Notes under the pieces: model-generated
The model's database searches: none
What the model was told of the DNA's origin: nothing
Seen by the model: only the letters and a program-made list of their open reading frames with translations
Assembly: GCA_051871795.1 (NCBI GenBank)
Contig: JBJEDE010000033.1
Span: forward strand, 16,354 to 80,353
From: Muribaculaceae bacterium
Lineage (GTDB): Bacteria > Bacteroidota > Bacteroidia > Bacteroidales > Muribaculaceae
Reading direction: 5' to 3'
Length of the DNA stretch: 64,000 bases
Translations under genes and position numbers: made by a program
Shown here: positions 2,953 to 39,178 of the stretch, piece after piece
How the letters are laid out: every line of letters starts with the position of its first letter
Position numbering within the stretch: the first letter of the stretch is position 1

Positions 2953-3023
2953 TTGCCTTGGAAGGATTCGAACCCTCACAGGCGGAACCAGAATCCGACG
3001 TGCTACCATTACACCACAAGGCA
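2953..3023 (-). tRNA. tRNA-Gln (anticodon CUG)
   Basis: Hand-folded 71-nt cloverleaf: acceptor TGCCTTG/CAAGGCA, D-arm GTGT-AATGGTA-GCAC, anticodon loop TTCTGGT, T-arm GAGGG-TTCGAAT-CCTTC. CCA is not encoded. Confidence 0.85.
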
Positions 3024-7244: not shown

Positions 7245-7398
7245 ATAAATGTGGACAAATTTGGCTGCTTGCAACCACAATAAAACAATGCTAAAACCGC
7301 TCAGCTTCCATATCTCATTATGGCTGATTTTTAAGGTTATGCATCGTGGTTGGCAGTGTCCGTCCATGATTTTTTTTAATTTTCAGCAATATTGAGTT
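7245..7398 (+). promoter_or_regulatory. Structured metK leader; candidate SAM-responsive element (class not established)
   Basis: TTTGGC (7262-7267) can pair with GCTAAA (7290-7295) around a GCAACC box. A weak hairpin (atcgtgg...ccatgat) followed by T8 sits just before the ATG. Confidence 0.3.
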
Positions 7399-8682
<1,284 letters not shown>

Positions 8683-8778
8683 TTTGCCACTCTGTCTCCA
8701 TCGATTGTCTGTACGGGTTGCACATCACGCGTAATTAAAAGTGAATTGGGATTTTTTTGCCAATACAAATTTAATCTG

Positions 8779-8786
8779 TATATTTG
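8779..8786 (+). promoter_or_regulatory. -7 promoter box (TATATTTG)
   Basis: TAnnTTTG, 94 nt upstream of the ATG at 8880. Confidence 0.4.
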
Positions 8787-12732: not shown

Positions 12733-14070
12733 TCATACGGCCGGCAGTGTGTGGCCGTTGAGCTTGCGATAGAGGTTGAGTGCGTAGACGTCGGTCATGG
12801 CCGACACGTGGTCAACGACAGCCTGTATGCGGTCGGCGAGTTCGGGCGCGCGCACATCGTATTGCCCGGGCACTTGCGAGAGCAGCAGACCGGAGTAGTT
12901 GAGCCCGGGATTGGCCACGGCCTGACACAACTTGTCGAGCAGGAAAGTGATGATGCGGTTGCCGGCCAGTTCGATATCGACCACGTCGGGAGCGCAATAA
13001 ATCTTAGACCACGACACTTCGTTGCAGCGCTCGTAGGCTGCCCGTTGCACTGGTGTGATATGGCGCATCAGAGGGTCAGCAAATTCTCCGGAAAGAATCT
13101 TCTCCTCATTGTCGACAAAAGCGTCGGCGCATCGCTCCACGAGCTCTCCGATGGCGCACGAGCGCAGATAGCCCACCTGCTCGTTGGGGTCGGCAATTTT
13201 TTCCATCACATCGTGCACGCGCAGCCGGCGTTGTGAGTCGAAATAGCCGAGCAACAGTGACTTTACCTCGTCGGTGGTGAGAATCTTGAGCTTGTGGGCG
13301 TCTTCGATATCCATGATTTCGTAGCAGATGTCGTCGGCGGCTTCGACGATAAACACCAGAGGATGCCGGGCGTACTTGACCGATCCGTCGGGCTGAGGAT
13401 ACTGCAACATACCCAACTCCCCGGCCACGCGCACAAAGCTTTCGCGCTCCGGGGCAAAGAAACCGAACTTGCCTTTCTCTCCGGCGTGCGATGAGTCGTA
13501 GGGGTATTTCACAACTGATGCGAGAGTGGAGTAGGTCATGGCGAACCCACCCTGACGGCGGCCGTTGAAGCCGTGGGTGAGCAGGCGGAATGCGTTGGCG
13601 TTGCCTTCAAAGTTGATGAGGTCGAGCCATCTCTCCGGCGGCAGCAACCCGCGGTAGATGCTGCCGGCGCCTTCGCTGAAAAAGGTTGCTATAGCTTTTT
13701 CGCCGGAGTGGCCGAAAGGCGGATTGCCGAGGTCGTGAGCCAGGCAGGCGGCCGCCACAATGTCGCCGATGTCGGACAGAGAGTCGGCGGCCGGAGTGCC
13801 GGCGTATTTCAGCCGAAGACGCGAGGCTATGTTGTCGGCCATCGACTTGCCCACGCAGGCTACCTCGAGCGAGTGAGTGAGACGGTTGTGCACGAAGATG
13901 CTGCCCGGTAGCGGAAACACTTGTGTCTTGTTCTGCAGACGGCGGAAGGGCGAAGAGAAGATGAGGCGGTCGTAGTCGCGGCGAAAGTCGCTGCGTCCCG
14001 TACCCTTTTTGGGGTCGTGGTAGTGCTCCAGTCCGAAGCGCTTATCGTTGATGAGTGATAGCCAGTCCAT
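12733..14070 (-). CDS. dgt: dGTP triphosphohydrolase (HD domain)
   Basis: 'RLTHSLEVACVGKS' and 'HDLGNPPFGHSGE'. Start trimmed to MDWLSL at 14070, because the promoter box lies inside the longer ORF. Confidence 0.85.
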   Translation of the reverse strand: MDWLSLINDKRFGLEHYHDPKKGTGRSDFRRDYDRLIFSSPFRRLQNKTQVFPLPGSIFVHNRLTHSLEVACVGKSMADNIASRLRLKYAGTPAADSLSDIGDIVAAACLAHDLGNPPFGHSGEKAIATFFSEGAGSIYRGLLPPERWLDLINFEGNANAFRLLTHGFNGRRQGGFAMTYSTLASVVKYPYDSSHAGEKGKFGFFAPERESFVRVAGELGMLQYPQPDGSVKYARHPLVFIVEAADDICYEIMDIEDAHKLKILTTDEVKSLLLGYFDSQRRLRVHDVMEKIADPNEQVGYLRSCAIGELVERCADAFVDNEEKILSGEFADPLMRHITPVQRAAYERCNEVSWSKIYCAPDVVDIELAGNRIITFLLDKLCQAVANPGLNYSGLLLSQVPGQYDVRAPELADRIQAVVDHVSAMTDVYALNLYRKLNGHTLPAV

Positions 14071-14103
14071 AGTTATTTTAAACCCTTGTGACGATTTCAG
14101 TGA

Positions 14104-14111
14104 CAAAGGTA
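14104..14111 (-). promoter_or_regulatory. -7 promoter box (TACCTTTG) for dgt
   Basis: TAnnTTTG, 34 nt upstream of the ATG at 14070. Confidence 0.5.
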
Positions 14112-14151
14112 AGCATTTTCCGCCAATCTGCGAAATACGGGCCGGCAATGT

Positions 14152-14183
14152 ACGCTGACGTCCTGACGATAACATTTATTGTC
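14152..14183 (+). repeat. Copy 1 of a 32-bp repeat (cctgacgAtaacatttattgtcgaaccggctc), flanked 3' by TAA
   Basis: 31/32 identical to the copy at 63307-63338 on the minus strand. Confidence 0.9.
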
Positions 14184-14192
14184 GAACCGGCT

Positions 14193-14900
14193 CTAATCTT
14201 CGGGCGCGGTATCAGGCTCGTTCTTTGTGGCGGCGGTCTGAGCCGGATTTGCGGCCTGTTGCGCGGCGGAGGTGCGTGCGTCGGCGCCTATGGGCTCGTC
14301 GAGGTCTGCCGAGTTGTCTTCCGTGTCGGGCGAGGCCTTGCGGTGCAGCACACCGGCGTGGAGCCCTTCGACAATCGCTCCGGCGGCAAATACCGCAAGA
14401 GCCGCGGCAGTGACTCCGACAATGGTCGCGCTGTCGATACTCTCACGGCGTACAAATATATATATGGCGAAGGCGGCGAGCGCAAGCGGAAACACATAAT
14501 ACCATGACGGCAGCGTGAACGGCCTGATGCCGACAGCAAGCGCATAGAACTGCCACAGCGAGCACAGAGCCACGATGAGACCGAAGATAAACGGCACCAT
14601 CGGCTCAAACGTGCCGCGAAAAACCAGCATGCACACACCCAATACCACCGCTGCCGAATTGGTTAGCGAAGTGAGCAGACGGTTCAGCCCGGAACCGTTG
14701 TTGAAAAACAGGAGGTTGAAGACTCCGGCGCCCACGAGCAGCACGCCGCCGGCCACTACGATGCGCGATACGGTGGCCTGATCGAGAAACACGAACATCA
14801 GCGCAGCCACTGCGGCAGCTATCACACCCACAAGCACCATCGTGCGGCCACGCATTGTGGTATTTTTGTCGTATTGCAAGGTATTCTTCTCTTCTGTCAT
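14193..14900 (-). CDS. Multi-pass membrane protein (possibly DUF308/HdeD-like) with an acidic C-terminal tail
   Basis: About 6 hydrophobic helices. Start trimmed to MTEEK at 14900, because the promoter box abuts the ORF-track start. Confidence 0.55.
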   Translation of the reverse strand: MTEEKNTLQYDKNTTMRGRTMVLVGVIAAAVAALMFVFLDQATVSRIVVAGGVLLVGAGVFNLLFFNNGSGLNRLLTSLTNSAAVVLGVCMLVFRGTFEPMVPFIFGLIVALCSLWQFYALAVGIRPFTLPSWYYVFPLALAAFAIYIFVRRESIDSATIVGVTAAALAVFAAGAIVEGLHAGVLHRKASPDTEDNSADLDEPIGADARTSAAQQAANPAQTAATKNEPDTAPED

Positions 14901-14934
14901 TTCTTTGTCTTTTGGTGTTGAACGGAACATGGCG

Positions 14935-14942
14935 CAAATTTA
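14935..14942 (-). promoter_or_regulatory. -7 promoter box (TAAATTTG)
   Basis: TAnnTTTG, 35 nt upstream of the ATG at 14900. Confidence 0.45.
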
Positions 14943-15126
14943 CAAATAAATATTGAGAATGTTAAATTCCTTAATAAAACATTTATTTCTTTCGGTTGGT
15001 TGAAACGGTAGCCTGAAACCGGCATTATGCGTCGTATAATCTCCCGGCAGTTTCCATGCCGTGAGCTTTCGCGGGTCATTGCGGCGGCGCTCGGGCAGAA
15101 TATTTGGCAGTCACAAAAAATATGCC

Positions 15127-15134
15127 TACCTTTG
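15127..15134 (+). promoter_or_regulatory. -7 promoter box (TACCTTTG)
   Basis: TAnnTTTG, 57 nt upstream of the ATG at 15191. Confidence 0.5.
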
Positions 15135-15190
15135 CGGTAAACAATCAGAGAAACTTATCAACTTACACTTACCCATAATCAATATCATCA

Positions 15191-16675
15191 ATGAAAAAGT
15201 ATTTACTTCTTGCTCTGGTATGTCTCGGCGCCCTATCGGCGGCGGCTGAGGAATATACCGTCTATCTCAAAAACACGGCCAACTGGTCCAACCCGTGCTG
15301 CTGGGCATGGAACTCTTCGACCGGCGTGAACTGTACGGCCAAGGGTGTGTGGCCCGGCGACGCAATGACCAAAGAAGGAGACCTGTGGAAATTCACGGCT
15401 CCCGACGGAAAAGAACCGAACATGTTTATCTTCTCCAACAGCGGTTCATCGCAAACCAAAAACCTCACATTCGTAAACGGCGCCACTTTTGACTGCTCGG
15501 GCAACAAAGTGTCGGGCGGCGACGATCCGGTGAATCCCCCCGTGACTCCTCCCGAAGGCGGCGATTTCACTCCCGGCACGTATCTCATCACCGACTACTA
15601 TAAAGTCAACCCTGACGGAAAAGTAGGTTCCAACAAAACCATCGCCGTGACCGGCGGAATCAAATGCGGCGCCGTCAGCCACTGGACCGATGCCGAACTT
15701 ATAGCTCAGGGCGTGGCACGCGACGTGTGCATGGCCATTAAAGGCACCCACGAGCGTCCCGTAGTCGACACATATTCGGTCTACGCCGCCTACGACAAGA
15801 CCAACCTCTACATAGGCATACAGTACGTCTACACCGTCTACGACCAGTGGGGCGAAGGCTACCAGCCCGGCGAATCTAAACCCTATAACATGGACGGCAA
15901 GATTATGATCGCATTCGACCTCGACCCCAAAAAAGCATGCGACGGAACACTTACCAACGGTGCATCGGTATGGTTCGACAAAGAGTACACGACATTCGAC
16001 AACGGTATGGACTGCCTCTTCCTCGGCTCCACAAAGCCCGGAGTGGGCAACCCCGGCCTCTTCGTGCCCAATGCCGCCGGCAAATTTGACTACAACGACG
16101 CCAATTCCTGCAAGTCGCACAGCGTGGTTTATGGCTGGGACGACGGTCTGCTGCCGTCAATCGACAAAATCTGGGGTCCGGAAAAATTCAACTACGACCC
16201 CGAGATACTCAAAGGCAACGAAGGCTTTGCCGACCTCAAAGAGCAGATAGCCAAGCTCGGCGGCAAAGACAGCGACCACACATTCTATGAGTTCAAATTC
16301 CCCCTCAGCGACCTCGGCATCACCGAAGACTATATCAAGACCTACGGCATAGGCGTGATGATTGTAGACATCTACGGCTCAAGCGCACACTCGACCACTC
16401 CCTACGACCCGTCGATGTTCGACAACGTGAAAGAGCCCTACTCGATGGATAAATCCACCTCCAAAGAAAAAGAAGACAAGGATATAATCACCTACGGCTT
16501 CGCCCGCGTAGGCAAGCTCGCCACATCCGAGCCCTCAGGTATCGAAAGCATCACCGGCGCCGATGACAGCGCACCGGTTGAATACTACAACCTCCAGGGC
16601 GTGCGTGTCGCCAACCCCGGAAGCGGTATCTACATCCGCCGTCAGGGCACAACAGCCACCAAGGTTATGATGTAA
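15191..16675 (+). CDS. T9SS-sorted secreted protein with an N-terminal starch-binding-like (CBM25/26-type) module
   Basis: Signal peptide. 'YLKNTANWSNPCCWAWN...GVWPGDAMTKEGDLWKF...MFIFSNSGSSQTKNL' resembles CBM25/26. C-terminal 'VEYYNLQGVRVANPGSGIYIRRQGTTATKVMM' is a T9SS CTD. Confidence 0.7.
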   Translation: MKKYLLLALVCLGALSAAAEEYTVYLKNTANWSNPCCWAWNSSTGVNCTAKGVWPGDAMTKEGDLWKFTAPDGKEPNMFIFSNSGSSQTKNLTFVNGATFDCSGNKVSGGDDPVNPPVTPPEGGDFTPGTYLITDYYKVNPDGKVGSNKTIAVTGGIKCGAVSHWTDAELIAQGVARDVCMAIKGTHERPVVDTYSVYAAYDKTNLYIGIQYVYTVYDQWGEGYQPGESKPYNMDGKIMIAFDLDPKKACDGTLTNGASVWFDKEYTTFDNGMDCLFLGSTKPGVGNPGLFVPNAAGKFDYNDANSCKSHSVVYGWDDGLLPSIDKIWGPEKFNYDPEILKGNEGFADLKEQIAKLGGKDSDHTFYEFKFPLSDLGITEDYIKTYGIGVMIVDIYGSSAHSTTPYDPSMFDNVKEPYSMDKSTSKEKEDKDIITYGFARVGKLATSEPSGIESITGADDSAPVEYYNLQGVRVANPGSGIYIRRQGTTATKVMM

Positions 16676-16696
16676 CACACAGACAGCCAAATACGC

Positions 16697-16727
16697 AAAA
16701 AAAAGCCACGCGGAGCGTGGCTTTTTT
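16697..16727 (+). terminator. Rho-independent terminator
   Basis: aaaaaaaa-GCCACGC-gga-GCGTGGC-tttttt. Confidence 0.8.
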
Positions 16728-16821
16728 CATGTGCAATCCGGCATATTGGCAGATGCAAAAAACTCTTGAAAATTATTATAAATCACGCTGCCCCTGTGCT
16801 GGCAATCAATTGTGCGACAGG

Positions 16822-16841
16822 ATTTATTGTCGAACCGGCTC
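16822..16841 (+). repeat. Copy 2 (3'-terminal 20 bp) of the repeat: atttattgtcgaaccggctc, flanked by TAA
   Basis: Identical to the last 20 bp of the copies at 14152 and 63307. It sits 43 bp from the edge of the AT-rich lux-like island. Confidence 0.85.
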
Positions 16842-16884
16842 TAAATAAGTCGCGACAAAGACAGCGCCTGCTGCGACCTAAGGA

Positions 16885-18081
16885 TTATATTATCGAAACG
16901 ATTCGGCTCATCATACCTATGAGGTCATAACCGTCCCAAATGAGTGAAAAGGAGGTCGTCTCGCCTATGGGCACAATTCGGTCGATACCGGTGGGTTTAT
17001 GTAAGGATATGAATTGCCTAAGCTCGTTTTCCGAAAGGCCGAAGTAGCATAGTGTCTGCATCTTTCGGTTTATTATTCCTGTAATCTCATCTAACGATAC
17101 GGCATCATATTCAGTGAAAAAGCCTCCGGCACAGCGGTAGTTTTCAATATTAGCCGGCAGAGTGTCGACTTTGGCCCTTACAATAAGATTGTCGGGGGTT
17201 TCCTCTCTCGTCGCTCCTGCTTCTATGGCCATTTCGTAAAGTGAAGTCAGCTTGTTTACCGCTATTACAGGCTGCAATTGATATTTTGTTTTACTGTACC
17301 GGTAAAAAGATTCCCAGAATATTTTTTTTGCGGATTTTATTTCCTCTTCTTTGCCGATCCATATTACGGAATGAGGTGCGGAGCACGCGTTTTGGTCAAA
17401 TAGGAACGTGTCGTTGTAAAATCCTTCAGCGAGTTTGTTTAACTCCGAGTCTGACAGATTCAGGATGGATGCGGCCTTTATGGCGCAAATGCTGTATCTG
17501 TCGGCAAAACAGATATCGAAAGATCTCGGAGGAAGCTGATTCTTTCTGATTTCAGCAATGGTATTGTCGCCGCCCCAAATCACGCGTATGTCGGCCATTG
17601 ACGAGAAGCGGGCGGTGAAGTCGCTGTTGTGCGAATATCTCACGAGCACTATCCTTTTGCTTGCAGGATAGCCTTCGAGGGCCTTTAAATGCTTGATGAC
17701 AAGATCTATCTGAGGAAATTCCTTTGACGACAGCTTCACTATATTAGAGTTGCCGCTTAATAGTCCGCACACCAACGAGTAACCGAAATTGATGGGTACA
17801 TTTCCCGGCGCGATATGAAATATCGTGCCTCTGCCGAGTCTTAATCTTCCGGTGGAGTGCAGCTCTTTGAGTTTCAGCAGATTGGCTTTTCTGCAAAAGA
17901 ACGCAAAAGTCACCACATCCGGATATGCACGCGCCTGACGGTCTTTGAGTATGCTTGCAGAAAGGTCGTTAAGGAATTCAATAATTGAGTCGTTGAATGG
18001 CTCACATGCCGACGGTAATGTGCTGAAGTCACAGTCCGTTGCGGAAGGAAAAAGTATCTGTAAATTAGAATTTAGTTGCAT
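16885..18081 (-). CDS. LuxC-family acyl-CoA/acyl-protein reductase
   Basis: 398 aa. 'FLFDQNACSAPHSVIW' fits the LuxC active-site Cys context. Its start overlaps the LuxE stop by 17 nt. Confidence 0.7.
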   Translation of the reverse strand: MQLNSNLQILFPSATDCDFSTLPSACEPFNDSIIEFLNDLSASILKDRQARAYPDVVTFAFFCRKANLLKLKELHSTGRLRLGRGTIFHIAPGNVPINFGYSLVCGLLSGNSNIVKLSSKEFPQIDLVIKHLKALEGYPASKRIVLVRYSHNSDFTARFSSMADIRVIWGGDNTIAEIRKNQLPPRSFDICFADRYSICAIKAASILNLSDSELNKLAEGFYNDTFLFDQNACSAPHSVIWIGKEEEIKSAKKIFWESFYRYSKTKYQLQPVIAVNKLTSLYEMAIEAGATREETPDNLIVRAKVDTLPANIENYRCAGGFFTEYDAVSLDEITGIINRKMQTLCYFGLSENELRQFISLHKPTGIDRIVPIGETTSFSLIWDGYDLIGMMSRIVSII

Positions 18082-19153
18082 AAGTGTCGCTACATCCTCT
18101 TATTTCGGCATTTTTGATGCGTCCGAATATTTTAAAATATTTGCCCTTGCGTCCACACGGGCAATCATCTTCGCCTAATATCATGCCTTCGTCTTCGGTA
18201 AGCAATATGTGACCGGGGTAACTCTCAGGCAGCACGCTGACTACTTCAATCAGACCCTTATGGCCGGACTCGGCTTCCGAGAAATCGGCGGGATTGCGTA
18301 TGATCACGTCACTGAAAGCCGAGGTATGCAGATGTCCGCACTCACATTCCATATATATAGTGCCGGTTTGCTCCACCATGCCGTAATAATCGTGGACGTT
18401 TTCAGGCTTGATACCGCACACGTCATTGAGCGTCTGCTTGAACTGTGCAGAAGAAATATTTTCAGAGATAAGTTTTTTCCAACCTCCTCCATGTATCAGC
18501 ACCGCTTTTGAGAGGTCCAGTTTCGTGCCGCTGTTCTTTAATGCCGAGACGAAATGCTGCCAAATCATAAAAGTGAAGCCAAAAAGAAGGATGGTCTCGG
18601 CGTCGCTGTTTTGTTGCAGGAAGTTTGTCACGCCTTCAATGTCAAGATTCATATTCTCGTCGAGAGCATAAGCTCTTTTCGACCCGAACATCGAGAAACC
18701 GAGGATACCGGCGCCTCGTGCAGAAAACATTCTTCTGTCCTTAACCACCGAACACGAATCCAAAATCAACATCGGTACTCTTTTCGAACCAAGAAAATTT
18801 CCTACAATCCTTGTCAGGCACTTGGTCTGGAGGGCCGAAGTCCTGCGGTCCAAAAATATGCGGCTTACCGCCTGTCCGGTCGTGCCCGAAGAAGTCATAG
18901 TCTTTACCACCTCGTCTTTGGGGCATGAGCGCAACACGTATTCCTTAAAGAGCCTCACCGGGAGCATCGGCAGATGCCTGTAGTCAGGGAGATTGTCGAT
19001 GTCGATATGCTCTGAGTCGATAATCTTCCTGTATGATTCGCAGTGCTCGTAATGATGGCGTGTGAGGTCCCTGATCCGCTGATTTAAAATTGCTGATTTG
19101 CTCTCCTTGTCAAGGGAATAAGGCTCCAAATCCAAAATTTCCTCAATAGACAT
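18065..19153 (-). CDS. LuxE-family acyl-protein synthetase
   Basis: 362 aa. 'MTSSGTTGQAVSRIFLD' adenylate-forming motif and LuxE-like length and order relative to LuxC. Confidence 0.7.
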   Translation of the reverse strand: MSIEEILDLEPYSLDKESKSAILNQRIRDLTRHHYEHCESYRKIIDSEHIDIDNLPDYRHLPMLPVRLFKEYVLRSCPKDEVVKTMTSSGTTGQAVSRIFLDRRTSALQTKCLTRIVGNFLGSKRVPMLILDSCSVVKDRRMFSARGAGILGFSMFGSKRAYALDENMNLDIEGVTNFLQQNSDAETILLFGFTFMIWQHFVSALKNSGTKLDLSKAVLIHGGGWKKLISENISSAQFKQTLNDVCGIKPENVHDYYGMVEQTGTIYMECECGHLHTSAFSDVIIRNPADFSEAESGHKGLIEVVSVLPESYPGHILLTEDEGMILGEDDCPCGRKGKYFKIFGRIKNAEIRGCSDTYATKF

Positions 19154-19157
19154 TTTA

Positions 19158-20552
19158 TTATATCATTTTTTGAAGTTCGCTGTAAGCTGTTTTTCCGGAT
19201 GATGTCTTAGGCAATTCCGCAATAGTCCTGACTTTGAATGCCTTAACGTTCAAGCCGGTTATCTTGGAAGAATAATTGCGGATATCGTCAGCGCAGGTTG
19301 CGTCAGTGGTGAAAATGGTGATTAAGTCATCGACACCTGCGCACGCTATCGATTCGAATCTGGGCTTAAGCAGCTGCTCCAGGGCATCAAGATTGCATCT
19401 GTTGCCCCAAATTTTTACGAAACGTTTCATACGTCCGGTAATATAATAAAATCCGTCGGCATCTTTTTTCCCAATGTCACCGGTGTGGAGGCTGCCGTGA
19501 TTTTCGTCGCCTTTGGCAAGGTCTTGAACACATTCGGCATAGCCCAAAGAAACATTTTGTCCTGAGTATACGAGCTCGCCTTCAGCGTCCGCTTCGTTTA
19601 TTTCATTACCAGACTGATCGATGATCGAAAAGCGACCTCCGGGAATGGGCATCCCAATAGAAGAACACTTCTGCACGGCGTATTGTGCCGGAAGATAGCT
19701 CATACGTGCCGTGGCTTCGGTCTGACCGTACATTACTACAAAGCGTTTGCCCTTTGATTGCGAATTTTCGGCGAAAAATTTTACCAATTCAGGCTGAAGC
19801 TTCCCTCCGGCCTGAGTCAAAGTGCTGAGCGACGGCAAATCCATATTGAAAAAACGCAGTCTTTTCAGCATTTCGTAGGTGTATGGCACTCCGGCGAATG
19901 ATGTCGCCTCTTCTTTTCTGACAAAATCCCAAAATTCGCGTTGCAGGATAGACTTGTCGGTAAGCAAAATACATCCGCCGGCGAGCAGATGGCTGTTGAT
20001 TACGCTGAGCCCGTAGCTGTAATGCATCGGCAGAGAGGTTACAGGGCGCTCTTTTTCGGTGATTGATAAATATTCGGCTATGCTCCGGGCGTTGGCGAGA
20101 ATGTTGGACTTTGACAGACGCACGAGCTTAGGTGAGCCGGTAGATCCGCTTGTGGTCAGCAGAAGCGAAAGCTCAGGGTTAATCCGATGCTTTCCTTCGT
20201 GGAGTCTCCAAAGAGAATATCCATGAGTTTTGTGCACTATTTCTCCTTGATCGAAGACTCTGTCGTCCGGAGTCCAGATATAGTTCGGTTTATAGATATC
20301 AATAAGTGGAAGGAGAAGATCGTCGACCTTGTTTTTGTCGAGCATGACCACCGGCATATTATTTTCCGGCGCGCTCAGATAGGCTATGACCGAACCGATA
20401 GAGTTGGAACATAAGCAAAAGCATAACGCGCCATCAGCTTCGACACGTTCGGCCACTGCCCTGATTTCATGAGAAAGTTCGCTGTAAGACAAGGCGTTAC
20501 CCGCATCATCCTTCAGCGCCGTCCCCATATGCTTGTCGATATCAAAAATCAT
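19158..20552 (-). CDS. Stand-alone adenylation enzyme (AMP-dependent ligase, DltA-like carrier-protein loader)
   Basis: 'LLTTSGSTGSPKLVRLS', 'VMYGQTEAT', 'TGDIGKKDADGFYYITGRMKRFVKIWG'. 464 aa. Confidence 0.8.
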   Translation of the reverse strand: MIFDIDKHMGTALKDDAGNALSYSELSHEIRAVAERVEADGALCFCLCSNSIGSVIAYLSAPENNMPVVMLDKNKVDDLLLPLIDIYKPNYIWTPDDRVFDQGEIVHKTHGYSLWRLHEGKHRINPELSLLLTTSGSTGSPKLVRLSKSNILANARSIAEYLSITEKERPVTSLPMHYSYGLSVINSHLLAGGCILLTDKSILQREFWDFVRKEEATSFAGVPYTYEMLKRLRFFNMDLPSLSTLTQAGGKLQPELVKFFAENSQSKGKRFVVMYGQTEATARMSYLPAQYAVQKCSSIGMPIPGGRFSIIDQSGNEINEADAEGELVYSGQNVSLGYAECVQDLAKGDENHGSLHTGDIGKKDADGFYYITGRMKRFVKIWGNRCNLDALEQLLKPRFESIACAGVDDLITIFTTDATCADDIRNYSSKITGLNVKAFKVRTIAELPKTSSGKTAYSELQKMI

Positions 20553-21322
20553 AGAGGAGAGGTTAAATAGGTTCGGATGTCAAAACCGCCGCCGTTAACT
20601 TTAATAGTTTGTCCTGTTACGTATCTTGATTGATCGGAGACTAAGAACATACATACGTCTGCAATTTCCTCAGGTAATCCGAATCGCTTCAAAGCGATAC
20701 CTCTTTTTAGAAGTTCAGATTCCTTTTCAGAAATAGATGAGCTTATCATTTTCGTTTCGGTAGGTCCGGGAGCTATTGCATTAACCCGGATGTTGTATGA
20801 GCCGAGTTCGGATGCGATTTTTTTTGTGGCTATGACAAGAGCGCTCTTGCTTGCGGCATATTCCATTTGCGAGGTGTCTTCTCCCCAGGCTGCAATCGAC
20901 GAGATGTTCACTATCGAGCCTTGACCGTTGCGTGTCATCATTCTCGCAACGAGCTGTGTGAGATAAATAACGCTGAAAAAGTTTATTTCCATCGTTTTTC
21001 TTATCTCCTCCATTTTTGTCATCTGGAACAGGGCTCCCGGGCTGAGATATCCGGCGCAGTTGACAAGGATATCTATGGGCTTTTTTTCTTTACGGATATC
21101 CATAAAACCCTCTTTGATGGATTCGGGTTTTTCCAAATCCATCATCACGGGGCGAATCCACACTCCATGCTCTTTTTGCAGGGATTCGATTTCGTTGAGC
21201 CATTGCGGATCGTCGCGATGAACCACGGCCCAGACGTTGATACCTTTTCCGGCAAATTTTTTCAGGATTGCCAATCCTATGCCGGTGCGGGCGCCGGTGA
21301 CTATGGCATTTTTCCCTTTCAA
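20549..21322 (-). CDS. SDR-family oxidoreductase (FabG-like)
   Basis: 'AIVTGARTGIGLAI' Rossmann motif and 'YAASKSAL' catalytic YxxxK. TTG start overlapping the ACP stop (TTGA). Confidence 0.8.
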   Translation of the reverse strand: MKGKNAIVTGARTGIGLAILKKFAGKGINVWAVVHRDDPQWLNEIESLQKEHGVWIRPVMMDLEKPESIKEGFMDIRKEKKPIDILVNCAGYLSPGALFQMTKMEEIRKTMEINFFSVIYLTQLVARMMTRNGQGSIVNISSIAAWGEDTSQMEYAASKSALVIATKKIASELGSYNIRVNAIAPGPTETKMISSSISEKESELLKRGIALKRFGLPEEIADVCMFLVSDQSRYVTGQTIKVNGGGFDIRTYLTSPL

Positions 21323-21555
21323 ATCTCTACGTCGTATTTGCGGAGGATTTCTTTGCCTTTCTCGTATGAAGAGAAGTCGATGATGTCGTCGGTCTCCATC
21401 ATGATGTCAAATGCGTCTTCAATGGCCGCAACGAGGGTCATGTGGCCCACGGAGTCCCATAATTCCGTACCTTGGTATGCCAGGCCGGCGAGTTTGTCTT
21501 CCGAGATTTCAAGTGTTTGACAGAATGCGTCGTTGTATTTCTGAAGATTGTCCAT
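21319..21555 (-). CDS. Acyl carrier protein
   Basis: 78 aa, acidic. The 'WDSVGHMTLVAAIE' DS motif is the phosphopantetheine attachment site. Confidence 0.75.
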   Translation of the reverse strand: MDNLQKYNDAFCQTLEISEDKLAGLAYQGTELWDSVGHMTLVAAIEDAFDIMMETDDIIDFSSYEKGKEILRKYDVEI

Positions 21556-21591
21556 AAAGCAGGGGATGATTAAGATGAAATGAGGGGTAGT

Positions 21592-22122
21592 TTATTTAAA
21601 CCGTTTGATAAATCTCAGACGATTTTTGTTGTTAAAATAGGCGTCTGCATCGAGGATGTAGAGCTGATTGTAGACATTTTCTTGTCCCGGAGCCATATAT
21701 GAGCCGAGGAAATCGATAAATCTTTGAGCGCGCCGATTGTCGGTAAGAATATGGGAGATGATTCTGTCGACCGTGCCGCTTTCGAATGCCGTGTCAAAAA
21801 GGGCTAAATGCGCGCGGTAGCTTACATCGGAGTTGAGGTAGCGGTCGTCCCAGATGAATACTCCGCCTTCTCCGACTTTGTCATGGATGTCCTTGATATT
21901 GATAAGGCCGATGTCTTGGCCGTGCATCACAATCAAATAAAAGAGGTTGGAATCATTATTGATTTTTTCAAACCATTTTTCCTGCATTTCGGCGGTGATT
22001 TCATCACGGTACTCCATATACTGTGATATTTTGGGGTCGTTTCTCCATCGGCGCACAAGCTCTATTTTGTCGTGAGTCAGGCGTTTAAGCGTGATGCCGT
22101 ATTTTGTGATTTCGTCTTGCAT
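21592..22122 (-). CDS. GNAT-family N-acyltransferase (RimL/Acetyltransf_3-like)
   Basis: 176 aa. 'ITLKRLTHDKIELVRRWRNDP...', 'DIGLINIKDI' and 'NRRAQRFIDFLG' resemble RimJ/RimL-type GNATs. Confidence 0.65.
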   Translation of the reverse strand: MQDEITKYGITLKRLTHDKIELVRRWRNDPKISQYMEYRDEITAEMQEKWFEKINNDSNLFYLIVMHGQDIGLINIKDIHDKVGEGGVFIWDDRYLNSDVSYRAHLALFDTAFESGTVDRIISHILTDNRRAQRFIDFLGSYMAPGQENVYNQLYILDADAYFNNKNRLRFIKRFK

Positions 22123-22173
22123 GAAGTTTATGGCTTATTGTAGAGTATAGGAAGAAGCATAAAATGCATTGTG

Positions 22174-22181
22174 CAAATTTA
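22174..22181 (-). promoter_or_regulatory. -7 promoter box (TAAATTTG) for the six-gene lux-like operon
   Basis: TAnnTTTG, 52 nt upstream of the ATG at 22122. Confidence 0.5.
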
Positions 22182-22212
22182 CGAAAATTATTTCGATTTG
22201 ACAAAACGTCTT

Positions 22213-23733
22213 TCACTCCCACTCGATTGTGGCCGGCGGTTTGGAGGAGATGTCGTAGGTGACGCGGTTCACGCCCTTGACTTTGTTGATGATTTCGTTG
22301 GAGACGTGGGCCAGGAAGTCGTAGGGGAGGTGGGCCCAGTCGGCTGTCATGGCGTCGGTGGAGGTTACGGCACGCAGGGCCACGGCGCGTTCGTAGGTGC
22401 GTTCGTCGCCCATCACTCCCACGCTCTGCACGGGCAGGAGTATCACGCCGGCTTGCCAAATTTGGTCGTAGAGATTCCAGTCGCGCAAGCCTTGTATGAA
22501 GATGTGGTCGGCTTCTTGCAGGATGTGTACTTTTTCGGGGGTGATGTCGCCGAGGATGCGTACGGCAAGTCCGGGACCGGGGAAGGGGTGACGCGATATG
22601 AGGCGGCGGGGAACACCGAGCTTGGCGCCCACGGCGCGCACTTCGTCTTTGAAGAGGAGGCGCAGGGGTTCGCACAGCCGCAGGTTCATGCGTTCGGGGA
22701 GTCCGCCCACGTTGTGATGGCTTTTGATAGTGGTGCCGGTGATGGAGAGACTTTCGATGCAGTCGGGGTAGATGGTGCCTTGGGCGAGCCATCGGGCGTC
22801 GGTGATTTTTTTTGCTTCTTTTTCGAAGACGTCGATGAAGCCTTTACCGATGATTTTGCGTTTGCGTTCGGGGTCGGTGACTCCGGCGAGTTCGGCGAAG
22901 AATTTTGCTGATGCGTCTACGCCGATGACGTTGAGGCCGAGGTCGCGGTAGTCGTGCATCACGTCGTGAAATTCGTTTTTGCGCAGCATGCCGTGGTCGA
23001 CGAAGATGCAGGTGAGGCGGTCGCCGATGGCGCGGTTCAGGAGTACGGCGGCCACGGTGGAGTCTACGCCGCCGCTGAGTCCGAGGATCACGCGGTCGTC
23101 GCCGATTTGCTCTTTGAGCGCGGCTACGGTGGTGTCGATAAACGAGTCGGCGCTCCATGAGCAGCCCGAGCCGCAGATACCGATTACGAAGTTGCGCAGG
23201 AGAGTCATGCCGCAAGTGGAGTGGAACACTTCGGGATGGAACTGGACGCCCCACGCGCGCCGGCCGTCGAGGCGGTAGGCTGCGCAATTTACTTTTTCGG
23301 TGGAGGCTATCACGTGCGCGTGCTCCGGGAGTGATGTGATGGTGTCGCCGTGGCTCATCCACACTTGTGCTCCGGGCTCGATGCCGGCCATCAGGGGGTC
23401 GGAGCCGCTGACAGATGCGAGGATTGCGCGGCCGTATTCGCGTGAGCCGGCTGCCTGCACGTTGCCTCCTCCCTGGTATGCTATGAGTTGTGCTCCGTAG
23501 CAGATGCCGAGCACGGGGTAGCGGTCGATGAGGGCTCGGGTGTCGGTGCTGAAGGCTTTGGGGTCGTAGACCGAGAACGGGCTGCCGGAGAGGATGACAC
23601 CGATTACGTCGGGATCGTCGTGGGGCATTTTGTTGTAGGGGTGGATTTCGCAATAAGTGCCCGACTCGCGCACTCGTCGTGCGATGAGCTGGGTGGTCTG
23701 CGATCCGAAGTCGAGGATGATAATTTTTTCCAT
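22213..23733 (-). CDS. guaA: GMP synthase (glutamine-hydrolysing)
   Basis: 506 aa. '[20 protein letters not shown]' and '[13 protein letters not shown]' PP-loop. C-terminal '...PPATIEWE'. Confidence 0.97.
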
Positions 23734-23769
23734 ATATGTGTTCCTGTTTTGAGGCTGAGTATGGGAGGA

Positions 23770-26145
23770 CTACGATTGTGGCAGGGCTATGCTGATAACT
23801 TCGGCTGCTGTGGCTGCGTAGTGGAAGGTGAGTCCGCGGGTGTAACGCTCGGGTATGTCGTCGATGTCTTTGCGGTTGTCGGGGCAGATGATGATGTCGG
23901 TGATGCCTGAGCGCTTGGCGGCGAGGATTTTTTCTTTTATTCCGCCCACCGCGAGCACTTTGCCGCGGAGGGTGATTTCGCCTGTCATGGCCGTGCGCGG
24001 GCGCAGTTTGCGGCCGGTGAGCAGCGATACCAGAGCGGTGGCGATGGTGATGCCGGCCGAGGGACCGTCTTTTGGTACGGCGCCTTCTGGAAAGTGGATG
24101 TTGATGTCGTTTTTGTCGAATATTTCGGGGTTTATGCCGAGCTCGGCGCTGTGGGTCTTTACCCATTTGAGGGCGATTGTGGCCGACTCTTTCATCACGT
24201 CGCCGAGGTTGCCGGTGAGGGACAGCTGATTGCCTTTTCCGGGCGAAAGGGATGTCTCGACCAGGAGCGTTTCCCCTCCTGCGCGAGTCCAGGCCAGACC
24301 TGTGACCACACCGGGTATGTCGTTGCCTTCGTACCGGTCTTTGGAGTATGGGGGAGTGCCGAGGAGGTCTTGCAGGTGTTCGGGCTCCACGGTGGTCGGG
24401 AATGTTTTGCCTTCCATTGTGGCGAGGATATGGCGCCGGGCGATTTTGGCGAGGGCTTTCTGAAGCTGTCGCACGCCGCTTTCTGCTGTGTAGAGGTCGA
24501 TGATGTCGGTGATGGCTGCGTCGCTAATTGCGAAAGCGTCGGGTGAGATGCCCAGCTCGGTGGCGTTGCGGCGTATGAGGTGAGTGCGTGCGATTTCTAT
24601 TTTCTCTTCGGTGATGTATCCGCTGAGGTTTACCACTTCGAGGCGGTCGAGCAGGGGAGGCGGCAACGTGTCGAGTGAGTTGGCGGTGGCTATGAAAAGC
24701 ACGTGCGAGAGGTCGAAGTCGACGTCGATGTAGTTGTCGTGGAAATGCGCGTTTTGTTCGGGGTCGAGCACTTCGAGCATAGCCGCGGAGGGGTCGCCTT
24801 TGTAGTCGGCGCCTATTTTGTCGATTTCGTCGAGCACGACTACCGGATTTCGGGTGCCGGCGCGCTTGATGGCGTCGATGATACGGCCGGGCATGGCGCC
24901 GATGTAGGTGCGTCGGTGACCTCTTATTTCCGATTCGTCGTGGAGGCCGCCCAAAGCCACTCGCTGATATTGGCGTCCCAGAGCGCGTGCAATCGATTCG
25001 CCGAGCGATGTTTTACCCACTCCGGGAGGGCCGACGAGGCATAGTATGGGTGCTTTCCCGTCGGGATTGTTGATAAGCACGGCGAGCTGTTCAAGGATGC
25101 GCTCTTTTACTTTGTCGAGCGAGCAGTGTTCGCTGTCGAGCGCCTGACGTGCGAGGGCGAAGTCGGTATTTAACTCTGTTTCGACGTTCCACGGCAGAGA
25201 GAGCAGCGTGTCGAGATATGTGTATATGACCGAGTAGTCGGGAGTCTGCGGGTTGTAGCGGCGTAGCCGTGAGAGTTCTTTGAGGGCAACCTCCCGCACA
25301 TTGTCAGGGAGCGCGGCGTCTTCGATGCGGAGAGCCATTTTCTCCACGTCGCCGTCTTCGCCGTAGAGCTCGTTCTGGAGCACTTCGAGCTGCTGTTGCA
25401 TGAAGGCGCGTTTCTGTCCCTCTTCAAGCTCGGTCTTGGTGCGCATCATCAGCTTTTTGAGCAAATCGGCCTCGAGAAGCTTTTCGGAGAGAATGTCGAT
25501 GAAGTGCATTGCACGTTTTTTTGGCGAGGGCGTAGCCAGAAGCTTGATTTTGTCCTTGATTTTGAACGGGAAATTGGTGAGGATGCTGTTGAGGCTGATC
25601 ACAGGCTCGTTGTTTTCGCGCAGCATCTTCAAGGTCTCGCCCGGGGTGTCGGGCCGGAGCGATGCGAACTCCTCGAGCATGTCGAAAATGCGGTTGATAC
25701 AGACTTTGAACTCGGTTTCGTTGTCGATATTGTCGTAATCGTCCGATAAGTTGTCGGCTGCGACGCAGAAGATGTCCTTGGGGCCTTTGGCGGCTTTGCG
25801 GGTTATGTGTATGGCCTGACGACCGAGCAGCAGAGCTGTTTTCGAGCCGTCGGGAAGCTCGATGATTTTAAGCACGATGGCTGCCACACCATATTTATAT
25901 ATGTCGCGAATCGAAGTGGGGAAATCCTCTTCCGGCTCCTTCTGGCAGAAAACGCCAATGGCTGAGTTGTGTTTCTCGCAATATTCGGCGGCTGCGAGCG
26001 ACTCCTCGCGCACCAGAGCGACAGAAATGTTCACGCCCGGAAACAGCACGAGGTTTCGGCTCGGGAGCACAGGTAGACAGTCGAGTTTGACAGGCCTGTT
26101 TATCTTGTCGATATCGATAGAGATGTGTTCGAGATGGAGATCCAT
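23770..26145 (-). CDS. lon: Lon protease (endopeptidase La)
   Basis: 791 aa. Walker A 'GPPGVGKTSLG' and catalytic Ser 'PKDGPSAGIT'. Confidence 0.95.
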   Translation of the reverse strand: MDLHLEHISIDIDKINRPVKLDCLPVLPSRNLVLFPGVNISVALVREESLAAAEYCEKHNSAIGVFCQKEPEEDFPTSIRDIYKYGVAAIVLKIIELPDGSKTALLLGRQAIHITRKAAKGPKDIFCVAADNLSDDYDNIDNETEFKVCINRIFDMLEEFASLRPDTPGETLKMLRENNEPVISLNSILTNFPFKIKDKIKLLATPSPKKRAMHFIDILSEKLLEADLLKKLMMRTKTELEEGQKRAFMQQQLEVLQNELYGEDGDVEKMALRIEDAALPDNVREVALKELSRLRRYNPQTPDYSVIYTYLDTLLSLPWNVETELNTDFALARQALDSEHCSLDKVKERILEQLAVLINNPDGKAPILCLVGPPGVGKTSLGESIARALGRQYQRVALGGLHDESEIRGHRRTYIGAMPGRIIDAIKRAGTRNPVVVLDEIDKIGADYKGDPSAAMLEVLDPEQNAHFHDNYIDVDFDLSHVLFIATANSLDTLPPPLLDRLEVVNLSGYITEEKIEIARTHLIRRNATELGISPDAFAISDAAITDIIDLYTAESGVRQLQKALAKIARRHILATMEGKTFPTTVEPEHLQDLLGTPPYSKDRYEGNDIPGVVTGLAWTRAGGETLLVETSLSPGKGNQLSLTGNLGDVMKESATIALKWVKTHSAELGINPEIFDKNDINIHFPEGAVPKDGPSAGITIATALVSLLTGRKLRPRTAMTGEITLRGKVLAVGGIKEKILAAKRSGITDIIICPDNRKDIDDIPERYTRGLTFHYAATAAEVISIALPQS

Positions 26146-26170
26146 TAAAAGTTAAGGGGGAAATTTTTTG

Positions 26171-26178
26171 CAAAGGTA
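26171..26178 (-). promoter_or_regulatory. -7 promoter box (TACCTTTG) for lon
   Basis: TAnnTTTG, 26 nt upstream of the lon ATG. Confidence 0.5.
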
Positions 26179-26252
26179 CGAAAAATTGCAAAAAAAATCA
26201 ATAATCCCCCGCGGTCATTAGTTTGCGGCCGGAGTTTGAAGCCTGTTTGATG

Positions 26253-26471
26253 TCAGAACTTTGAGCGCCCCGCCTCAGCCACACTCAGTGAAACTGTACC
26301 GCAAAAGCTAAGAGCCGATTCAACATAGCCGATATAGCGCCCGACTTCCCCAGCCGTAACAAATGCCTCGCCTTTATCATAATGCCGAAGTTGACCGCGG
26401 CTTTTGCAAAGATTCTGCCAAAAGTCGGTGTCAATGTTATCGATATATGAGTTGAACTGCGACTGCATCAC
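26253..26471 (-). pseudogene. Truncated N-terminal fragment of a Crp/Fnr-like (cNMP-binding) regulator
   Basis: 72 aa. 'RHYDKGEAFVTAGEVGRYIGYVES' looks like the start of a cNMP-binding beta-roll. The ORF then ends, with no HTH half. Confidence 0.4.
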
Positions 26472-26504
26472 AAAAATATACTATGCCATTACGAAACAAA
26501 AGCA

Positions 26505-26771
26505 TCAGCCGACCGTGATAATAGGCTGCCCGAAGAAAGTGGAAAGCATGGCGAGAGTTGAGATAGTGAAGTTATGCTCGCCGCTCAGCCATTTTGTTAT
26601 TTCACAAGGTCGTTTACCAAGAGCGTCGGCAAACTGTTTTTTCGTCAAGCCCCGCAGTTGCATCAAATCATAAATTCGGTCTGAAATCTGAAAGGAAAGC
26701 TCGGTTTCCAGTTGCAGACTTTTGGGGATGGGCCCCAGCATTTCTTCCAGTGATTTAGCAGTGCGTTTCAT
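26505..26771 (-). CDS. XRE-family HTH antitoxin (HigA-like)
   Basis: 88 aa. 'LRGLTKKQFADALGKRPCEITKWLSGEHNFTISTLAMLSTFFG'. ATGA overlap with the upstream toxin ORF. Confidence 0.7.
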   Translation of the reverse strand: MKRTAKSLEEMLGPIPKSLQLETELSFQISDRIYDLMQLRGLTKKQFADALGKRPCEITKWLSGEHNFTISTLAMLSTFFGQPIITVG

Positions 26772-27238
26772 ATTTCAAATATATTGTCGGTTTCTATTGT
26801 GGATTCAGTTATGCTAACATTGCCGTTAGCAACTTCCTGCTTAAGAAGCTGTTCAAACTTTTGCAAAGTCATTACATAACCGTTAAGAAGTGAATCGTCC
26901 TCGTATCTTTGAGATTTCTTCACTCCTCCATTGCCTAAAACGAGAATTCTATCGGATAACCGCAGACAATAAAGTCTGAGTTTGGAAGATGTAACCGGTA
27001 AAGCTACGACCGAATCATTCATTTTCCCTTCAGGTCGAAAATAGCGCTCCAATGCACCTGTCTTCGCAATACGTGTAATGAATGCCGCTATTCGGGAGAA
27101 GTCCTCACTGTATTCGGCATCTTCTCTGAATTTGGAGACAAATTTCTCAAATTCAGATTCCATATCGCGGAGAAATTGGAAAGTATATATCGTGCAGTTT
27201 TCTCCGTCCCTGATTAAATAGAGTTCTACTTCGCTCAT
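26768..27238 (-). CDS. RelE/HigB (Gp49-like) family toxin with an N-terminal extension
   Basis: 156 aa from the ATG at 27238 (the ORF-track start is TTG). 'KLRLYCLRLSDRILVLGNGGVKKSQRYEDD' matches the Gp49/HigB core pattern. Confidence 0.5.
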   Translation of the reverse strand: MSEVELYLIRDGENCTIYTFQFLRDMESEFEKFVSKFREDAEYSEDFSRIAAFITRIAKTGALERYFRPEGKMNDSVVALPVTSSKLRLYCLRLSDRILVLGNGGVKKSQRYEDDSLLNGYVMTLQKFEQLLKQEVANGNVSITESTIETDNIFEI

Positions 27239-27268
27239 GGTTCGTATCTTGCGTTTTGTATTATAACG

Positions 27269-27276
27269 CAAAGATA
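27269..27276 (-). promoter_or_regulatory. -7 promoter box (TATCTTTG) for the toxin-antitoxin pair
   Basis: TAnnTTTG, 31 nt upstream of the ATG at 27238. Confidence 0.45.
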
Positions 27277-27372
27277 CGACAAATATTTTACTTAAAAATA
27301 AAATTTCTCACATTTCTTACTTTGGTTTTTACGGCGCGCCGCGATACGCCCGACACGGAGGGGGCGGAAGTG

Positions 27373-30039: not shown

Positions 30040-30053
30040 GTATGTGGCGGGAA

Positions 30054-39034: not shown

Positions 39035-39178
39035 ATTATGATAATTGAGAGTTGTTATTGATTTTATTGGCACCGGAGCTTGCACCGGTGTGACAATGCA
39101 AATTTAACATTAAATTGTTAAATATGCAAATTCTTTATTGCCTCAGGCCGTGAAATGTCGGCTTGGCTTCGGCTTCGG

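Follow-up and report, generated by a model that had tools for sequence, protein, structure and literature searches.

What could a set of genes for loading, reducing and transferring an acyl group be doing by itself among housekeeping genes? The question is raised by a stretch of 64 kb from a Muribaculaceae bacterium (contig JBJEDE010000033.1; the whole stretch is referred to here as the window), in which six intact open reading frames (ORFs), all on the minus strand, occupy positions 16885-22122. In order of transcription, they encode a GNAT N-acyltransferase, an acyl carrier protein (ACP), a FabG-like short-chain dehydrogenase/reductase (SDR), an adenylate-forming AMP-ligase, a LuxE-like acyl-protein synthetase and a LuxC-like acyl-thioester reductase. 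By analogy with glycan-modification systems, we consider it moderately probable that this cassette is the acyl-donor half of a pathway for the N-acylation of an amino sugar, and that the sugar on which it acts is produced elsewhere. The cassette itself is accessory, being present in some strains of its species and replaced by unrelated sequence in others.

The six proteins and their genomic partners

We assigned the six proteins by Pfam, NCBIfam and PDB searches, which agreed with the roles given to them in a preliminary description made from the sequence alone; in particular, the ORFs at 16885 and 18065 kept their assignments as LuxC and LuxE. The GNAT protein matches Pfam Acetyltransf_3 (7.5e-13), its best NCBIfam model is PseH (TIGR03585; 59.2 bits, under the cut-off of 93.1), and its sole PDB match is the PseH structure 4XPK (E = 1.3e-7), so that it appears to be PseH-like rather than PseH itself. 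The ACP is a divergent carrier protein with a weak match to NF002150, and its WDSVGH motif, in which Ser35 is presumed to be the phosphopantetheine site, is kept in all cassette-type ACPs compared. When the translations were read by eye, the SDR (adh_short_C2, 1.4e-56) was found to contain the motifs TGxxxGxG, NxAG and YxxxK, and the ligase (AMP-binding, 7.6e-43) all core motifs of the adenylate-forming (ANL) enzymes. The ligase reaches no NCBIfam equivalog cut-off; its nearest solved relatives are the oxalate-CoA ligases 5IE0 and 6QJZ, a kinship that hints weakly at a small polar acid as the substrate, which the enzyme presumably loads onto the ACP. Two other labels for the ligase were rejected: “DltA-like”, which had been used in the preliminary description, because the cut-offs of the DltA models, 476 and 560 bits, are far above the 81-83 bits reached here; and a long-chain, FadD-like reading, likewise on scores. 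No MBOAT (DltB) or DltD partner was found in the window.

The last two proteins share their folds with the bioluminescence enzymes after which they are named. The LuxE-like protein matches Pfam LuxE (PF04443) over its full length (2.1e-62, 212 bits), carries the nucleotide motif TSSGTTGQ, and aligns with residues 25-366 of 7XC6_E, with Cys354 matching a cysteine near the LuxE C-terminus. The LuxC-like protein matches Pfam LuxC (PF05893; 6.8e-25, 88 bits), and its Cys233 (FDQNACSAP) aligns with the cysteine of YDQQACFST in Photobacterium LuxC (7XC6_A). We take the counterparts of Cys233 and Cys354 to be the catalytic and acylated cysteines of LuxC and LuxE. The curated equivalogs NF052251 and NF052244 are nevertheless missed, with 54 bits against 750 for the LuxC-like protein and 85 bits against 550 for the LuxE-like protein.

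To what kind of locus do such genes normally belong? LuxE-like homologues number more than 8000 in the protein collection, and 345 LuxE-like loci (60-74% identity) were confirmed in species-representative genomes of Bacteroidota, Firmicutes, spirochaetes and Proteobacteria, a phyletic scatter that indicates frequent horizontal transfer. The gene order conserved in the genome loci is ACP-(SDR)-(two genes)-AMP-LuxE-LuxC, the two additional genes being a split transketolase that 41 of 80 loci contain. When long related loci were screened by BLAST with sugar-pathway seeds, 48 of 55 had sugar-pathway genes no more than 10 kb away, which, together with published islands (PMC7874193, PMC4875605), bears out the earlier statement that cassettes of this kind are mostly found in surface-polysaccharide loci. 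Embedding in a capsule locus, with genes for GT1, GT2, DegT, Bac_transf, FdtA and UDP-glucose dehydrogenase, was seen at the locus with a LuxE annotated as that of Bacteroides eggerthii and at others; the module usually lies inside capsule, O-antigen or flagellin-glycan loci. A proteobacterial version of the module stands on a Rhizobium beringeri plasmid (positions 3365-15609 of locus L285), where the transketolase pair, an LpxA-like acyltransferase, ACP, AMP-ligase, a glycosyltransferase, LuxE and LuxC are joined by an SDR, a GMC oxidoreductase, FabZ and a methyltransferase.

A form led by the GNAT gene, as in the window, is found in only 3 of the 80 genome loci and in the closest metagenomic relative, L082, whose LuxE is 84% identical to that of the window (69-70% for L008 and L020). 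A search with the GNAT protein returned 412 relatives, and orthologues in related cassettes show identities of 58-74% for the GNAT, which stands directly upstream of the ACP gene, 63-81% for the ACP and 51-71% for the SDR. The surroundings of these loci (Table 1) are instructive. In L282, the acyl supply is a different one, consisting of another ACP, an SDR and a FabH-like KAS III, which probably gives a 3-hydroxybutanoyl group for the same transferase step. Because the partners DegT, GT56 and Wzx or RmlAB stay constant while the acyl-building genes interchange, we propose that the GNAT is an acyl-ACP-dependent sugar N-acyltransferase like PseH and WecD; the constant partners, as far as their families tell, would make and use a nucleotide-linked 4-amino-4,6-dideoxyhexose. 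Given these neighbours and the kinship with PseH, the cassette therefore looks like a donor half whose acceptor half lies outside the window. The preliminary description of a “self-contained pathway” with a wholly unknown acceptor thus needs to be revised, as the GNAT family adjoins DegT, GT56, Wzx and, once, RmlA and RmlB, and PseH is its sole solved relative.

Two further observations concern how such modules are distributed. In locus L283, genes for Toprim, TraQ, lysozyme and a tyrosine integrase (positions 1-2829) lie within about 7 kb of the block GNAT..LuxC-DegT-GT56-Wzx, which suggests that the block is carried on a conjugative transposon. In two other Bacteroidales genomes, housekeeping genes likewise surround an 8-gene GNAT cassette, at a different site in each: between SurE and adk in L008 (3921-12266), and between asd and fba in L276/L277 (8533-16992 in L276). 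“Stranded” donor modules therefore recur; both of these cassettes keep a 12-helix Wzx-like gene directly 5' of the GNAT gene, and the cassette of the window is the most stripped-down version seen among the loci compared.

We propose the following chemistry for the cassette. The LuxE-like protein would adenylate one carboxyl group of a (di)carboxylic or hydroxy acid that is short and polar, the LuxC-like protein would reduce it to the aldehyde, and the SDR would turn that carbonyl into a hydroxyl group. The AMP-ligase would put the remaining carboxyl group on the dedicated ACP, either before or after the reduction, and the PseH/WecD-like GNAT would take the hydroxy-acyl group off the ACP and attach it to the amine at C4 of a nucleotide-linked 4-amino-4,6-dideoxyhexose such as dTDP-Fuc4N/Qui4N or UDP-4-amino-AltNAc. 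The acceptor sugar, its glycosyltransferase and its flippase would be encoded elsewhere in the genome, and the cassette, working in trans, would edit the N-acyl decoration of a surface glycan through its own gain or loss.

The length of the acyl chain may have changed in the ancestry of this particular copy. Wherever the identity of an SDR to that of the window exceeds 50%, its locus has the split transketolase (TktN and TktC) between the SDR and ligase genes. In L082, TktC ends in ...SSL-stop with an ATGA junction to the ligase gene; in the window, it is the SDR that ends in ...TSPL-stop with an identical ATGA overlap with the ligase start, and its C-terminal tail resembles the end of TktC. 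The simplest reading of these alignments is that the window copy is a reduced descendant of the 8-gene form, in which an in-frame deletion of the transketolase would have joined the final TktC codons to the SDR gene while keeping the translational coupling. As a probable consequence, the acyl chain is shorter or otherwise changed. On a more speculative reading, forms with the split transketolase would join a C2 unit to the aldehyde to give a 3-deoxyhexonoyl skeleton, and the product of forms that lack it would be a C4 group of the dihydroxybutanoyl type; the deletion would then be a natural switch from C6 to C4. The longer group would have the skeleton of the 2-methoxy-4,5,6-trihydroxyhexanoyl group reported on the flagellin sugar of Treponema denticola (PMC13439194); a profile scan from the T. 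bryantii LuxE returned mostly loci of Lachnospiraceae and other Firmicutes (71-85% identical), and T. denticola was not returned. As regards the shorter group, the six-gene block is also present in Aeromonas AH-3, and this strain carries a pseudaminic acid derivative of 376.14 Da as well as an unexplained 102-Da moiety (PMC7874193). Replacing one acetyl group (42.011) of the Pse5Ac7Ac residue (316.127) with C4H6O3 (102.032) gives 376.148, and the fit of this value to a C4H6O3 acyl group is a lead, not a test. The wider proposal to which this switch belongs, and which we put forward as a rather doubtful possibility, is that the module family in general is a carboxylate-reduction route to hydroxy-acyl-ACP donors for amino sugars, with chemistry of the tetronate type, and that its stand-alone copies edit the N-acyl groups of surface glycans in trans.

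A strain-variable segment among housekeeping genes

The six genes of the cassette are closely spaced, and here the preliminary description proved exact in both coordinates and junctions: a gap of 36 nt between GNAT and ACP, a TTGA overlap between ACP and SDR, an ATGA overlap between SDR and ligase, a gap of 4 nt between ligase and LuxE, and an overlap of 17 nt between LuxE and LuxC. The promoter box noted at 22174-22181, which reads TAAATTTG on the minus strand, could likewise be confirmed, as a TTTG stands at the correct upstream distance, 20 nt away. Bipartite motifs of this Bacteroidetes type (TTTG-N17-23-TAnnTTTG) occur seven times in the window against 0.76 expected, an approximately nine-fold enrichment; they include sites at 8756-8786, 15103-15134, 22174-22205 and 39099-39130, and those that were compared with the ORF map lie just 5' of gene starts.

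Table 1. Features of the cassette and its borders in the window, and gene surroundings of related loci
Feature	Position	Strand	Size	Remarks
GNAT N-acyltransferase, PseH/WecD-like	21592-22122	-	176 aa	Pfam Acetyltransf_3
Acyl carrier protein (ACP)	21319-21555	-	78 aa	weak NF002150 match; WDSVGH motif
FabG-like SDR	20549-21322	-	257 aa	Pfam adh_short_C2
Adenylate-forming AMP-ligase	19158-20552	-	464 aa	Pfam AMP-binding
LuxE-like acyl-protein synthetase	18065-19153	-	362 aa	Pfam LuxE (PF04443)
LuxC-like acyl-thioester reductase	16885-18081	-	398 aa	Pfam LuxC (PF05893)
Strain-variable segment	16727-22212		5486 nt	limits of homology to cassette-less contigs, and composition
Promoter motif TTTG-N20-TAAATTTG	22174-22205	-		about 52 nt before the GNAT start codon, within the variable segment
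Motif GATTTATTGTCGAACCGGCTCT	16821-16842	+	22 nt	repeated within the species
Terminator hairpin and T-run of the CBM26 gene	16705-16727	+		gene convergent with the cassette; left limit of homology to the cassette-less allele
Related locus L020				Wzt, then GNAT..LuxC, then DegT and GT56 (WecF-like)
Related locus L278				GNAT..LuxC, then a metallo-beta-lactamase-fold gene, DegT, GT56 and Wzx
Related locus L283				GNAT..LuxC, then DegT, GT56 and Wzx; integrase and TraQ genes adjoin
Related locus L280				cassette amid GT1 genes, with DegT
Related locus L282	6345-15061 (of L282)			GNAT family member (58% identity) after RmlA and RmlB, before DegT, GT56 and EpsG

The base composition of the cassette sets it apart from its surroundings. 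The variable segment has a G+C content of 46.0%, against 54.9% for the remainder of the window, and in windows of 1 kb the values are 45-48% within the cassette and 52-61% alongside, so that the contrast suggested earlier by spot counts is real, if slightly smaller. Single genes deviate as well, with z-scores for G+C of -1.9 to -2.8, and G+C at third codon positions (GC3) is lowered to 0.49-0.62, whereas 39 other genes average 0.67.

A cassette-less allele was found by an exact look-up of the GuaA protein encoded in the window. Four metagenome contigs (L214-L217) encode an identical GuaA, but in these the CBM26 gene follows guaA after approximately 0.2 kb, and past it, just as in the window, come genes for a membrane protein, an HD-domain protein and a TPM protein. 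The nucleotide sequences are homologous to the window at 96-99.7%, and this homology ends exactly at 22213, the guaA stop codon, and at 16726/16727, at the end of the T-run of the CBM26 terminator; between these limits, the cassette-less allele has 207 unrelated nt where the window has 5486 nt. The two alleles therefore differ by a replacement, not by a clean insertion, and the cassette is an accessory, strain-variable element within this rat-gut Muribaculaceae species. The assignment of the host to the Muribaculaceae agrees with the genes that flank the segment. Searches of reference genomes with the CBM26 protein and GuaA gave homologues of at most 81% identity in no conserved neighbourhood, and hence no information on an empty site. 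Horizontal acquisition of the cassette, as had been proposed, is strongly supported by the combination of its compositional deviation, the empty-site allele in the same species, and the fact that its closest relatives are at most 84% identical and lie in other genomic contexts.

How the replacement took place is less easily read from the junctions. The preliminary description had pointed to a repeat resembling the end of an insertion sequence (IS) at the left edge of the cassette, and the repeat does exist: a motif of 21-22 nt, (C/G)ATTTATTGTCGAACCGGCTCT, occurs in three copies in the window (14173-14194 and 16821-16842 on the plus strand, and 63306-63327 on the minus strand; 0 expected by chance), past which the similarity stops sharply after ...GGCTCT. 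“IS-end-like” can describe the shape of the motif only, because the motif is also present in the empty allele and comes without a transposase, terminal inverted repeats or a target duplication. Indeed, the copy at 16821-16842 is the sole sequence inside the variable segment that the filled and empty alleles have in common, and the motif was detected only in contigs of the same species, those of the cassette-less allele included; it could be a regulatory or a recombination site. No direct or inverted repeats and no target-site duplication were found to flank 16727-22212, no transposase or integrase gene lies in or beside the segment, and Rfam gave no match at its junctions.

Within the species, the cassette appears to be maintained. 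Several studies have contributed the public runs in which it is present; these number at least 19 and are for the most part metagenomes of the rat gut. In four independent metagenomes, it differs from the window at 45-69 positions (0.8-1.3%). The 40 variant positions with the best support comprise 29 synonymous, 10 non-synonymous and 1 intergenic, and none causes a frameshift. The cassette is thus under purifying selection within the species, and this level of divergence, with a 29:10 ratio and no broken frame, argues that it has resided there for some time. Between the window and L001, the cassette differs by 3 synonymous and 0 non-synonymous changes, a divergence of 0.06% compared to 2.7% in the CBM26 gene; a very recent sweep of the cassette was considered and rejected, as metagenomes of other studies diverge by 0.8-1.3% in it. 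Contigs of several runs skip 82-238 nt inside guaA (23097-23495 in the window), which is probably noise in the assembly graph caused by co-occurring related species.

For the remainder of the window, approximately 48 ORFs over 64 kb were scanned with Pfam, and those without a match were passed through a second scan at relaxed thresholds. The cassette is flanked by housekeeping and degradative genes only. To its left lie the genes for a CBM26 surface protein, a dGTPase-looking HD-domain protein, a TPM-domain protein, an M16 peptidase, cyclophilin and metK; to its right, guaA, lon, a UvrD-exonuclease fusion, an M23 peptidase, alaS, a C11 peptidase, mscS, der and era, and further on fabH, fabD, tatC, ftsK, a GH31 hydrolase, a KilA-N protein and grpE. 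Even in the relaxed pass, none of these ORFs was identified as a glycosyltransferase, flippase, polymerase or sugar-nucleotide gene, which upholds the earlier observation that the window contains no gene for glycan synthesis. Two other low-G+C islets, at 26000-27300 (containing an ORF at 26768-27271 with a GC3 of 0.38 and no Pfam match, between lon and the helicase gene) and at 57599-58414 (the KilA-N domain gene, 46% G+C), are probably further foreign insertions. The helicase (27373-30501, minus strand) is a UvrD-type protein of 1042 aa in which an RNase_T exonuclease domain sits between the N- and C-terminal helicase domains. A SAM-II riboswitch (7245-7304, plus strand; 60 bits, gathering score 44) stands just upstream of metK (7399-8682), and a tRNA gene is located at 2953-3023 on the minus strand.

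Weighing the alternatives

Several points weigh against a donor half that acts on a distant acceptor. Although the module is very common, with its thousands of LuxE homologues in four phylum-level groups, a biochemically characterised member was not found in the searched literature, and every chemical step is therefore proposed by analogy. Genes for an acceptor pathway are absent for 16.7 kb to the left and 41.8 kb to the right of the cassette. The SDR belongs to a transketolase-linked clade, judging by its relatives, and after the loss of the transketolase its substrate may no longer be made. Finally, two runs that contain the cassette, X1 and X3, are labelled as TRANSCRIPTOMIC RNA-Seq, but across 13000-26000 of the window their depth is flat over genes and spacers and their contigs reach at least 50 kb, and because this resembles metagenomic DNA they cannot serve as evidence of expression; a query for RNA at the level of single genes yielded assembled contigs only.

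The most viable of the other explanations, which we nonetheless regard as improbable, takes up the idea of a self-contained pathway, in which the six genes would make a free N-acyl amine, aldehyde or similar metabolite, serving as a signal, an osmolyte or an antimicrobial and unconnected to any glycan. The 64 kb free of glycan genes, the operon's own promoter and the purifying selection on it all agree with such a pathway, as does a copy on a Ponticoccus plasmid, which adjoins genes for amino-acid transport and metC with no annotated glycan gene near, in a gene table that is incomplete. This reading leaves unexplained why the GNAT family repeatedly adjoins DegT, GT56, Wzx and RmlAB genes, why most copies of the module lie within glycan loci, and why the other two “stranded” copies retain a Wzx-like flippase gene beside the GNAT gene; moreover, the cassette contains neither an exporter nor an amine-forming gene.

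Slightly less credible is that the cassette is an orphaned remnant of a larger glycan island, which has lost its transketolase, aminotransferase, transferase and flippase and has no consequential product in this host. Its close relatives do all carry two to five extra genes (the transketolase pair, DegT, GT56 and Wzx), and many strains of the species live without the cassette. A remnant would hardly be expected to show six intact frames with their catalytic motifs present, a transketolase deletion that is in frame and preserves the ATGA coupling, and, across four independent metagenomes, the excess of synonymous over non-synonymous variants with 0 frameshifts described above. We give the least credence to a Lux-like fatty-acid reductase whose product is either a fatty aldehyde of long chain length or an acyl-ACP destined for a lipid or “liposugar”, for which the homology to LuxC and LuxE and the lipid-bearing glycan speculated on by the authors of the Aeromonas and Enterobacteriaceae studies (PMC7874193, PMC4875605) can be cited, but against which stand scores far under the LuxC and LuxE equivalog cut-offs, the lack of a LuxD acyl-transferase and of a luciferase in the window, the action on oxalate of the nearest solved ligases, and the C4 dihydroxy N-acyl group of V. 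cholerae O1, whose wbe genes are of comparable make-up (PMC3441752).

Taken alone, the locus is unremarkable: an accessory module of a known kind that happens to occupy an unusual position. It combines a minimal, six-gene version of the module with natural cassette-plus and cassette-minus strains of one species, and so offers a ready comparison by which both the acyl group and its acceptor could be found. If the donor half does act in trans, gut Bacteroidales would be able to alter the fine chemistry of a surface glycan by acquiring or shedding a 5.5-kb donor module located apart from the glycan locus. In other bacteria, such surface-glycan chemistry has an effect on recognition by phages and by the immune system (PMC3441752).

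Comparison with known systems

In its content and order of ACP, FabG-like SDR, AMP-ligase, LuxE and LuxC genes, the cassette agrees with the module known from glycan loci, whereas its position outside such a locus does not. Flagellin glycosylation islands of Aeromonas group II have the order pseH-ACP-FabG-AMP-luxE-luxC, the block lying directly downstream of pseH (PMC7874193), and flagellin islands of Enterobacteriaceae contain the same gene set (PMC4875605); in both, the function given for the block is a guess. The likeness of the Aeromonas block to the cassette is one of gene order: the six functions are the same, the PseH-type GNAT comes first and LuxC last, and neither has a transketolase. 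The Aeromonas block lies between pse genes and glycosyltransferase genes and serves flagellin glycans, whereas the copy in the window stands alone between guaA and the CBM26 gene. To our knowledge, the Muribaculaceae are a non-motile family.

The closest genetically studied analogue of the cassette, as judged by analogy of its components, would be the wbe region of Vibrio cholerae O1, in which WbeK is an ACP and WbeO an acyltransferase, and for which the pathway to the tetronate group was reportedly first proposed by Morona et al. in 1995 (Gene 166:19). Each of the genes wbeL, wbeM and wbeN is needed for the O1 antigen, in which perosamine bears 3-deoxy-L-glycero-tetronate (2,4-dihydroxybutanoyl) as its N-acyl group. 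WbeL, an ATP-binding protein of 471 aa, is assigned to tetronate synthesis, and the annotations of wbeM and WbeN (825 aa, from a gene of 2478 nt) are iron-type alcohol dehydrogenase and acyl-CoA reductase/acyl-protein synthetase, respectively (PMC3441752, PMC9915646). Going by these component descriptions, WbeK to WbeO and the cassette would have in common an ACP, a ligase (471 aa for WbeL, 464 aa in the window), a reductase of LuxC and LuxE type, an alcohol-forming dehydrogenase and an acyltransferase, and the acceptor in V. cholerae O1 is a nucleotide-linked 4-amino-4,6-dideoxyhexose, as we propose for the cassette. They differ in that WbeN is a fused LuxC/LuxE protein, the dehydrogenase is of the iron type and the genes lie inside the O-antigen cluster, whereas the window has separate LuxE and LuxC proteins, an SDR, and a position outside any glycan locus.

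Orthologous proteins and a shared gene order link the cassette most directly to the Bacteroidales loci of the form GNAT-ACP-SDR-TktN-TktC-AMP-LuxE-LuxC(-DegT-GT56-Wzx), that is L082, L008, L020, L276, L278, L280 and L283, in which the GNAT is 58-74%, the ACP 64-81% and the SDR 55-71% identical to that of the window; unlike these, it has no split transketolase, and no DegT, GT56 or Wzx gene near. With the LuxCDE fatty-acid reductase, of which a cryo-EM structure is available (7XC6; PMC9157457), it shares homologous LuxC and LuxE folds with aligned cysteines, and presumably also the steps of adenylation, thioester formation and NADPH-dependent reduction to the aldehyde. It differs from that system in the absence of LuxD and luciferase from the window and in the coupling of LuxC and LuxE to an ACP, a ligase and a GNAT, and the substrate of its LuxE and LuxC is probably a short polar acid and not myristate. 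The D-alanylation system of DltA and DltC is a poorer match, with DltA scores below the cut-offs and the partners DltB and DltD not found in the window; nor does the variable segment have the transposase or integrase, the terminal inverted repeat or the target duplication of an insertion sequence, transposon or integrative element. We conclude that the cassette is not a new system, but an unusually placed and reduced member of a module family that is already known, although biochemically uncharacterised.

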